DNA of 64,000 nucleotides from NCBI RefSeq assembly GCF_017348835.2, contig NZ_CP071375.1. The stretch is one strand, 5' to 3'. Origin of the DNA: Escherichia coli. GTDB taxonomy: Bacteria > Pseudomonadota > Gammaproteobacteria > Enterobacterales > Enterobacteriaceae. The notes under the pieces were generated by a model. That model saw only the letters and a program-made list of their open reading frames with translations, did no database searches and was not told the DNA's origin. Each line of letters starts with the position of its first letter. Positions within the stretch are counted from its first letter, which is position 1. A program made the position numbers and the translations under genes. Below, in pieces: positions 46,207-49,200 of the stretch.

Positions 46207-49200
46207 ATGGACGTCAGTCGCAGACAATTTTTTAAAATCTGCGCGGGCGGTATGGCTGGAACAACAGTAGCGGCATTGGGCTTTGCCCCGAAGCAAGCAC
46301 TGGCTCAGGCGCGAAACTACAAATTATTACGCGCTAAAGAGATCCGTAACACCTGCACATACTGTTCCGTAGGTTGCGGGCTATTGATGTATAGCCTGGG
46401 TGATGGCGCAAAAAACGCCAGAGAAGCGATTTATCACATTGAAGGTGACCCGGATCATCCGGTAAGCCGTGGTGCGCTGTGCCCGAAAGGGGCCGGTTTG
46501 CTGGATTACGTCAACAGCGAAAACCGTCTGCGCTACCCGGAATATCGTGCGCCAGGTTCTGACAAATGGCAGCGCATTAGCTGGGATGAAGCATTCTCCC
46601 GTATTGCGAAGCTGATGAAAGCTGACCGTGACGCTAACTTTATTGAAAAGAACGAGCAGGGCGTAACGGTAAACCGTTGGCTTTCTACCGGTATGCTGTG
46701 TGCCTCCGGTGCCAGCAACGAAACCGGGATGCTGACCCAGAAATTTGCCCGCTCCCTCGGGATGCTGGCGGTAGACAACCAGGCGCGCGTCTGACACGGA
46801 CCAACGGTAGCAAGTCTTGCTCCAACATTTGGTCGCGGTGCGATGACCAACCACTGGGTGGATATCAAAAACGCTAACGTCGTAATGGTAATGGGCGGTA
46901 ACGCTGCGGAAGCGCATCCCGTCGGTTTCCGCTGGGCGATGGAAGCGAAAAACAACAACGATGCAACCTTGATCGTTGTCGATCCCCGTTTTACGCGTAC
47001 CGCTTCTGTGGCGGATATTTACGCACCTATTCGTTCCGGTACGGACATTACGTTCCTGTCTGGCGTTTTGCGCTACCTGATCGAAAACAACAAAATCAAC
47101 GCCGAATACGTTAAGCATTACACCAACGCCAGCTTGCTGGTGCGTGATGATTTTGCTTTCGAAGACGGTCTGTTTAGCGGCTACGACGCTGAAAAACGGC
47201 AATACGATAAATCGTCCTGGAACTATCAGTTCGATGAAAACGGCTATGCGAAACGCGATGAAACACTGACTCATCCGCGCTGTGTGTGGAACCTGCTGAA
47301 AGCGCACGTTTCCCGCTACACGCCGGACGTTGTTGAAAACATCTGTGGTACGCCAAAAGCCGACTTCCTGAAAGTGTGTGAAGTGCTGGCCTCCACCAGC
47401 GCACCGGATCGCACAACCACCTTCCTGTACGCGCTGGGCTGGACGCAGCACACCGTGGGTGCGCAGAACATCCGTACTATGGCGATGATCCAGTTGCTGC
47501 TCGGTAACATGGGTATGGCCGGTGGCGGCGTGAACGCATTGCGTGGTCACTCCAACATTCAGGGCCTGACTGACTTAGGCCTGCTCTCTACCAGCCTGCC
47601 AGGTTATCTGACGCTGCCGTCAGAAAAACAGGTTGATTTGCAGTCGTATCTGGAAGCGAACACGCCGAAAGCGACGCTGGCTGATCAGGTGAACTACTGG
47701 AGCAACTATCCGAAGTTCTTCGTTAGCCTGATGAAATCTTTCTATGGCGATGCCGCGCAGAAAGAGAACAACTGGGGCTATGACTGGCTGCCGAAGTGGG
47801 ACCAGACCTACGACGTCATCAAGTATTTCAACATGATGGACGAAGGCAAAGTCACCGGTTATTTCTGCCAGGGCTTTAACCCGGTTGCGTCCTTCCCGGA
47901 CAAAAACAAAGTGGTGAGCTGCCTGAGCAAACTGAAGTACATGGTGGTTATCGATCCGCTGGTGACTGAAACCTCTACCTTCTGGCAGAACCACGGCGAG
48001 TCGAACGATGTCGATCCGGCGTCTATTCAGACTGAAGTATTCCGTCTGCCTTCGACCTGCTTTGCTGAAGAGGATGGTTCTATCGCTAACTCCGGTCGCT
48101 GGTTGCAGTGGCACTGGAAAGGTCAGGACGCGCCGGGCGAAGCGCGTAACGACGGCGAAATTCTGGCGGGTATCTACCATCATCTGCGCGAGTTGTACCA
48201 GGCCGAAGGTGGTAAAGGCGTAGAACCGCTGATGAAAATGAGCTGGAACTACAAGCAGCCGCACGAACCGCAATCTGACGAAGTAGCTAAAGAGAACAAC
48301 GGCTATGCGCTGGAAGATCTCTATGATGCTAATGGCGTGCTGATTGCGAAGAAAGGTCAGTTGCTGAGTAGCTTTGCGCATCTGCGTGATGACGGTACAA
48401 CCGCATCTTCTTGCTGGATCTACACCGGTAGCTGGACAGAGCAGGGCAACCAGATGGCTAACCGCGATAACTCCGACCCGTCCGGTCTGGGGAATACGCT
48501 GGGATGGGCCTGGGCGTGGCCGCTCAACCGTCGCGTGCTGTATAACCGTGCTTCGGCGGATATCAACGGTAAACCGTGGGATCCGAAACGGATGCTGATC
48601 CAGTGGAACGGCAGCAAGTGGACGGGTAACGATATTCCGGACTTCGGCAATGCCGCACCGGGTACGCCAACCGGGCCGTTTATCATGCAGCCGGAAGGGA
48701 TGGGACGCCTGTTTGCCATCAACAAAATGGCGGAAGGTCCGTTCCCGGAACACTACGAGCCGATTGAAACGCCGCTGGGCACTAACCCGCTGCATCCGAA
48801 CGTGGTGTCTAACCCGGTTGTTCGTCTGTATGAACAAGACGCACTGCGGATGGGTAAAAAAGAGCAGTTCCCGTATGTGGGTACGACCTATCGTCTGACC
48901 GAGCACTTCCACACCTGGACCAAGCACGCATTGCTCAACGCAATTGCTCAGCCGGAACAGTTTGTGGAAATCAGCGAAACGCTGGCGGCGGCGAAAGGCA
49001 TTAATAATGGCGATCGTGTCACTGTCTCAAGCAAACGTGGCTTTATCCGCGCGGTGGCAGTGGTAACGCGCCGTCTGAAGCCGCTGAATGTAAACGGTCA
49101 GCAGGTTGAAACGGTGGGTATTCCAATCCACTGGGGCTTTGAGGGTGTCGCGCGTAAAGGTTATATCGCTAACACTCTGACGCCGAATGTCGGTGATGCA

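Follow-up and report, generated by a model that had tools for sequence, protein, structure and literature searches.

Does the TGA triplet that interrupts a long reading frame in this Escherichia coli DNA end one protein, or does it stand for an amino acid within a longer one? In the window (the whole stretch of DNA analysed, 64,000 nucleotides), the mechanical list of open reading frames (ORFs) holds two consecutive entries in the same frame, 46207-46794 (195 amino acids) and 46843-49254 (803 amino acids, starting at an internal ATG). They are separated by 48 nt that are in frame and free of stop codons. The preliminary description had considered them as one formate dehydrogenase alpha-subunit gene, fdnG, cut at its known selenocysteine (Sec) position 196 by a single in-frame TGA that is followed by a predicted hairpin. 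fdnG is one of three textbook selenoprotein genes of E. coli. We hold it for practically certain that the TGA at 46792-46794 is the Sec196 codon of fdnG, accompanied by a downstream bacterial SECIS element, and not a terminator. The site is already known and is experimentally established for E. coli K-12; nothing about it is new here. The features discussed below are listed in Table 1.

Table 1. Coordinates in the window of fdnG, its recoding signals and the downstream genes of the operon.
Feature	Position	Strand	Basis or remark
fdnG (formate dehydrogenase-N alpha subunit)	46207..49254	+	One CDS, 1015 codons plus stop, internal TGA read through
Tat signal peptide codons of fdnG (MDVSRRQFFK...ALA)	46207..46305	+	Motif from the translation; cleavage position from established knowledge
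71-nt invariant block	46789..46859	+	21 Enterobacterales fdnG/fdoG sequences, all synonymous sites included
Bacterial SECIS element (match to Rfam RF01989, SECIS_3)	46789..46847	+	84.3 bits against a gathering score of 63; full model, 1-59
UGA codon 196 of fdnG (selenocysteine, Mo-ligand position, followed by His197)	46792..46794	+	Alignment to X196 of 1kqf_A
Whole hairpin, Rfam register	46795..46837	+	Lower stem 46795-46804 with 46829-46837
Apical SECIS minihelix, GG-U(bulge 46808)-AGCAA / loop GUC 46814-46816 / UUGCU-CC	46806..46823	+	Presumed SelB-binding part
fdnH (FDH-N beta, Fe-S subunit)	49267..50151	+	TIGR01582, 482.1 bits against a cut-off of 334.7; RefSeq annotation
fdnI (FDH-N gamma, cytochrome b subunit)	50144..50797	+	NF007558, 486.9 bits against a cut-off of 339; RefSeq annotation

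Identity of the Gene and Organization of the Operon

Translation of the plus-strand frame 46207-49254 yields 1016 codons, among which the TGA at codon 196 is the only stop apart from the terminal one. No other internal stop or frameshift was found in this one-frame translation across the 3 kb of fdnG. The claim that a single TGA splits an otherwise continuous frame was therefore correct, and exact in its coordinates. The conceptual protein, written with X at position 196, aligns over residues 1-1015 with residues 1-1015 of PDB chain 1kqf_A (2397.5 bits). This chain is named “formate dehydrogenase, nitrate-inducible, major subunit” and bears itself a non-standard residue X at 196, while the PDB chains ranking next are formate dehydrogenases named “selenocysteine-containing”. 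We take structure 1KQF to document the full-length FDH-N alpha polypeptide of E. coli. The two fragments were also compared individually with TIGR01553, the NCBIfam equivalog model for FdnG. The N-terminal fragment covers profile positions 1-194 (280.7 bits) and the C-terminal fragment alone covers positions 196-1009 (1317.3 bits for a cut-off of 814.2), which leaves exactly one position for the TGA. Residues 4-10 read directly in the translation as SRRQFFK, the twin-arginine motif expected for Tat export.

Two RefSeq E. coli chromosomes, those of the pig strains PE164 and F2_81, match the 3.2-kb region with fdnG at 100% identity, and many other E. coli strains do so at ~99.3%. The region recurs at 95-100% identity in 5425 of the 5426 complete E. 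coli genomes, and fdnG is annotated at this place in each of them. In the 100%-identical RefSeq record fdnG is annotated as a single 3048-nt CDS spanning the TGA. It is preceded by yddG and followed by fdnH, fdnI, yddM (higA-like), a RelE/ParE-family toxin gene, adhP, and maeA. Relative to FdnG of E. coli K-12 (1KQF/1KQG) this is the same gene, with the Sec196 UGA, the fdnGHI operon and the neighbours yddG, yddM, adhP, and maeA. The window protein carries only strain-level substitutions in comparison with the 1KQF sequence (four amino-acid differences in the displayed portion of the alignment). The gene product of fdnI scores above the cut-off of the FDH-N gamma model (Table 1) and below that of the FDH-O gamma model NF007924 (268.4 bits; cut-off 341), which identifies the operon as fdn and not fdo. 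Judged by its sequence, 46207-49254 is E. coli fdnG, an ordinary gene that was already described.

If the TGA were a genuine terminator, the region would code for two proteins: an N-terminal fragment of 195 amino acids with the Fe-S and Tat parts, and a polypeptide of 803 amino acids restarting at ATG 46843. This is what the mechanical ORF list displays. Moreover, termination at UGA competes with Sec insertion, and from established knowledge some 195-amino acid product is expected, especially under selenium limitation. As an account of the gene, however, the two-protein arrangement is very improbable. In the solved FDH-N alpha structure a single chain, with its non-standard residue at 196, comprises both parts, the TIGR01553 profile is continuous over the site, and RefSeq annotates one CDS. 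In addition, the 48-nt stretch that separates the TGA from the ATG is not only in frame but conserved as coding sequence, and it contains the SECIS. An in-frame TGA at codon 196 of fdnG together with the known recoding hairpin means that the two ORFs are one gene, as had been proposed. In the annotation, a single fdnG CDS that carries a translation exception at codon 196 should thus replace the two entries. Programs that call ORFs naively divide every bacterial selenoprotein gene in the same manner.

Conservation of Codon 196

Codons 196-197 of fdnG are TGA-CAC (U-H) and align with X196-H197 of 1kqf_A, a Sec residue followed by His as anticipated for this position. Together with the 100% identity to RefSeq fdnG, this alignment substantiates that the triplet is the Sec196 codon, whose residue we take to be the molybdenum ligand. 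Alignment to FdnG, FdoG, and FdhF had been suggested as the way to check the assignment: 1kqf_A is one chain, and both fdoG and fdhF of K-12 have a TGA at the aligned codon, each with a homologous element.

A natural control was provided by scanning one genome per species for the pattern Q-A-R-V-[TGA/TGC/TGT]-H-G-P, with no condition set on the sequence further downstream. This search yielded at least 114 usable TGA sites and at least five Cys (TGY) sites. The TGA:TGY ratio among the matches listed, which include K-12 fdoG, is 116:5; it should not be read as an estimate for the population, and five sequences make a small Cys control. TGA is thus present at the codon aligned to that of fdnG in at least 114 homologues from other species and alternates, among the matches listed, only with Cys codons, a further point against the TGA being a genuine terminator. 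The listed TGA homologues belong to Proteobacteria, Acidobacteriota, Actinomycetota, Chloroflexota, and other groups. Every listed homologue has TGA or TGY followed by CAY, in an H-G-P context that was itself demanded by the search pattern.

The same data bear on the idea that the TGA is a nonsense mutation or a sequencing error and that fdnG is a pseudogene in this strain. Pseudogenes do occur nearby in the identical record (a frameshifted porin gene and a gene for a truncated LRR protein). Yet fdoG (the paralogue), fdhF, and homologues in more than 100 species have the equivalent TGA, fdnG is maintained at 95-100% identity in all but one of the complete E. coli genomes, and its 3 kb carry no other stop or frameshift. 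A pseudogene is the least probable of the readings considered here, its probability being close to nil.

Anatomy of the SECIS Element

The match to Rfam SECIS_3, the FdnG/FdoG-type family, has an E-value of 1.4e-18 for the whole window and is the sole RNA match at gathering level within its 64 kb. The match is full-length and lies directly 3′ of the UGA; the fdnG element departs from the family consensus in lower-stem register. Assignment to the fdhF-type family SECIS_2 was discarded (28.8 bits for a gathering score of 70) and SECIS_3 is preferred. A weak match to mir-129 at 46119-46152 (E = 0.35) is attributed to chance.

The UGA is followed by 10 nt, then a C, and then the apical helix, in which G46806-G46807 pair with C46822-C46823 and the AGCAA stretch 46809-46813 pairs with UUGCU 46817-46821. 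All seven pairs are standard in the window sequence. U46808 is bulged and the loop is formed by G46814, U46815, and C46816. The lower stem is less regular: in the Rfam register seven of its nine pairs are standard and two are non-standard, while the minimum free energy (MFE) fold of the window sequence moves the register by one base and fits better. According to a 2026 review, the consensus bacterial SECIS (bSECIS) lies inside the CDS and has a loop of 3-9 nt, an upper stem of 4-16 bp, a G in one of the first two loop positions followed by G or U, a UGA-to-loop distance of 16-37 nt, and an MFE of -7.5 kcal/mol or lower (PMC13188914). The fdnG element has a loop of 3 nt beginning with G-U, an upper stem of 7 bp, and 19 nt separating this loop from the UGA, all within these limits. 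Its MFE, -14.6 kcal/mol when 49 nt are folded and -17.4 kcal/mol when 59 nt are folded, is also below the consensus limit, a weak criterion because shuffled sequences fall in the same range.

Two other E. coli genes offer a direct comparison. In fdoG (FDH-O), where the TGA is likewise codon 196, the segment corresponding to 46789-46859 is identical base for base while the rest of the gene has diverged. The SECIS of fdhF (FDH-H, Sec140, SECIS_2) has the same layout of UGA, 10 nt, C-GG, bulged U, 4-5 bp, and GU loop, with equal spacing, but differs from that of fdnG in its stem (UGCA/UGCA), its loop (GGUC), and its 3′ half.

Folding Energy Is Not Diagnostic

A hairpin was predicted to follow the TGA, and one is indeed found within 46792-46840, with pairs spanning 46794-46839 and an energy of -14.6 kcal/mol. 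This energy alone is not significant: for the 49-nt hairpin it is no better than chance (z = -1.45; 19 of 200 shuffled sequences fold as well), and neither is that of the 59-nt version (z = -0.77). The MFE of the 49-nt segment also fails to separate the listed TGA homologues from the TGY ones (-19.9 and -21.1 kcal/mol, respectively). Folding energy was therefore dropped both as evidence for the SECIS and as a discriminator. The lesson for calibration is that a SECIS cannot be identified from hairpin energy.

Covariation and Comparison with Cysteine Homologues

The structural check of the SECIS rests instead on the SECIS_3 score and on covariation in the apical helix. Across 74 distinct TGA sequences among the matches listed this helix is 96.7% paired, and in four of its seven pairs both sides change (A-U/C-G, A-U/G-C/C-G, and G-C/U-G). 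None of 500 shuffles reached its covariation score. When, as a control, the apical partner was slid by 1-3 columns, pairing fell to 28-50%. Some of the apical exchanges alter the protein in step, as seen by comparing VAS-LAP with VSS-LGP. The behaviour of the lower stem is different: in the same 74 sequences it is 83.6% paired and none of its nine pairs has changes on both sides.

The Cys homologues provide an independent view of the two helices. All seven apical pairs are standard in 105 of the 114 listed TGA sequences, whereas the apical helix is disrupted in each of the five listed Cys homologues, which keep only two to five of the seven pairs. The element is thus absent from the listed Cys loci; they score 38.4-48.5 bits with SECIS_3, each under the gathering score. 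The lower stem, by contrast, is equally paired in the listed Cys and Sec homologues. It looks largely driven by coding, to judge from these alignments, with no covariation support for selection at the RNA level. The ~38-48 bits reached by the listed Cys homologues come from coding similarity, which implies that about half of the 84 bits of fdnG are not structural evidence. For calibration this means that roughly half of the SECIS_3 score at this locus is coding conservation shared with Cys homologues. The failure of the lower stem in terms of compensatory change does not exclude the fdnG element from the SECIS family.

What discriminates a SECIS is accordingly the UGA in combination with the seven apical base pairs, the bulged U, and the GU loop, and not the thermodynamic hairpin or the lower stem. 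The apical minihelix alone is needed for SelB binding, and a short apical hairpin suffices if its spacing is correct. The identification of the apical minihelix as the functional signal agrees with this known sufficiency.

Frozen Synonymous Sites

The fdnG sequence of the window and K-12 fdoG, aligned over their first 2940 nt, have an overall identity of 75%, and of 56% at third codon positions. No identical run that they share is longer than the 71-nt segment 46789-46859, which begins exactly at the start of the Rfam match. All 19 third positions within that match are identical in the two genes, and a run of 71 nt was reached in none of 20,000 codon-shuffled permutations. The comparison was extended to 21 Enterobacterales fdnG/fdoG sequences from genera that include Escherichia, Enterobacter, Citrobacter, Klebsiella, Superficieibacter, Yersinia, Providencia, and Photorhabdus (at least 10 genera). 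All 23 synonymous sites of the segment are frozen in this set. In genera other than Escherichia the flanking synonymous sites have 42-59% identity with the window, and in E. albertii 83%. Every codon flanking the block shows ordinary variation at the third position.

These observations allow weighing the proposal that the hairpin is a by-product of conserved codons (H-G-P ... G-R-G) without a function as RNA, the TGA being read through by near-cognate insertion of Trp or Cys or by some other route. Several of the results above are those that such a by-product would give: the lower stem lacks compensatory changes and pairs equally well in the listed Cys homologues, these homologues reach 38-48 bits with SECIS_3, and energy distinguishes neither the TGA group from the TGY group nor real from shuffled sequences. 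The apical helix, however, covaries (A-U to C-G, A-U to G-C, and G-C to U-G) with coordinated amino-acid changes and is broken in all five listed Cys homologues, and the 23 synonymous sites are frozen in Enterobacterales in contrast to their variable flanks. An origin from codon conservation is partly true for the lower stem; for the apical helix it is refuted, as it is by the frozen synonymous sites. As an explanation of the whole element we give it hardly any chance.

Recoding Mechanism and Host Machinery

Of 5426 complete E. coli genomes, 5425 contain DNA of the K-12 selA-selB region. No sel gene lies within the 64-kb window and no tRNA gene was found there. SelB binding and Sec insertion are documented for the E. 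coli FDH genes (PMC13188914). According to established knowledge, SelB carrying GTP and Sec-tRNA(Sec) would bind the fdnG apical minihelix 46806-46823, the approaching ribosome would unwind the lower helix of the SECIS, and, once the UGA enters the A site, the tethered SelB would compete with release factor 2 and deliver Sec-tRNA(Sec) (PMC13188914). The expected product, again on the basis of established knowledge, would be a single Tat-exported polypeptide of 1015 residues, the catalytic molybdopterin subunit of respiratory formate dehydrogenase-N, with Sec196 on the molybdenum. We infer SelB binding, competition with release factor 2, and Mo ligation at fdnG from what is established for this system. 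What was observed in the DNA of this strain itself is the single frame, the identity to fdnG, the alignment of the TGA with residue 196 of the solved structure, and the match to SECIS_3; the comparisons add the covariation and frozen synonymous sites of the element, its loss in the listed Cys homologues, and selA-selB in E. coli genomes.

Extent of the Invariant Block

The 71-nt block reaches 12 nt (three free synonymous sites) past the end of the Rfam model and 22 nt past the last pair of the hairpin. Its causes could be an extended basal helix, a spacing requirement of the ribosome or of SelB, or recurrent gene conversion between fdnG and fdoG. The MFE fold of larger windows does form a basal helix between 46776-46782 and 46854-46860. 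This helix is not supported as the cause of the block: over 100 distinct TGA sequences among the matches listed its informative pairs are only 24-85% paired, and the pairs that hold throughout fall on invariant coding positions, which the listed Cys homologues have too. Outside the enterics there is no covariation support for pairing of 46776-46782 with 46854-46860. In Enterobacterales the constrained RNA may be larger than the SelB-binding minihelix and could reflect an additional, lineage-specific function, a suggestion that we consider rather unlikely. The excess length of the block is a minor observation that could stem from a lineage-specific constraint or from gene conversion.

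Sequence conservation around the SECIS element

The alignment of 21 Enterobacterales fdnG and fdoG sequences contains a stretch of 71 nt (46789-46859) that carries no change at all, synonymous sites included, and the codons that flank it display ordinary third-position variation in the same sequences. The invariance reaches 12 nt further than the match to Rfam SECIS_3 (RF01989) and 22 nt further than the final pair of the hairpin. An additional basal helix was predicted between 46776-46782 and 46854-46860; it is unsupported by covariation in other lineages.

No compensatory change was seen in the lower stem of SECIS_3 (46795-46804 with 46829-46837), and pairing in this stem is equal in the Cys-type homologues (five among the matches listed: L006, L021, L033, L048 and L082), which carry TGY. 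These homologues score 38-48 bits against SECIS_3, a score that comes from coding similarity alone, and are set apart by the model's gathering score of 63, below which they fall. The SECIS_3 E-values overstate the evidence for structure.

Upstream region of fdnG

The motif TTGAT-N4-CGCAA is present on the + strand at 46129-46142, approximately 65-78 nt 5′ of the point where fdnG translation starts. Its likeness to the FNR box sequence TTGAT-N4-ATCAA makes it a putative FNR box. Expression of fdnG is regulated anaerobically, with which such a box would be consistent. A small inverted repeat (CTTTTTG/CAAAAAG) overlaps the motif; the Rfam match of this repeat to mir-129 (E = 0.35) is at chance level.

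Genes flanking the fdn locus

Directly downstream of fdnI come the yddM and toxin genes, which are encoded on the opposite strand. The ompC pseudogene is positioned upstream of yddG. The espR1 gene and its accompanying pseudogene lie directly past the porin pseudogene according to the annotation of the RefSeq record, whose 100% identity to the window was established over 46100-49300. Their annotation in this identical record suggests that a strain-variable island adjoins the fdn locus.

Features flanking the fdn locus (L001, locus of the RefSeq record)
Feature	Position	Strand	Source
yddM (HigA-family antitoxin gene) and RelE/ParE-family toxin gene	50848-51410	-	ORFs and RefSeq record annotation
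Porin pseudogene, seen as neighbouring ORFs of 238 aa and 102 aa	43736-44835	-	ORFs and RefSeq record annotation "ompC, frameshifted"
espR1 (T3SS effector gene) and truncated leucine-rich-repeat pseudogene	L001 1-876 (~ window 42100-42975)	-	RefSeq record annotation
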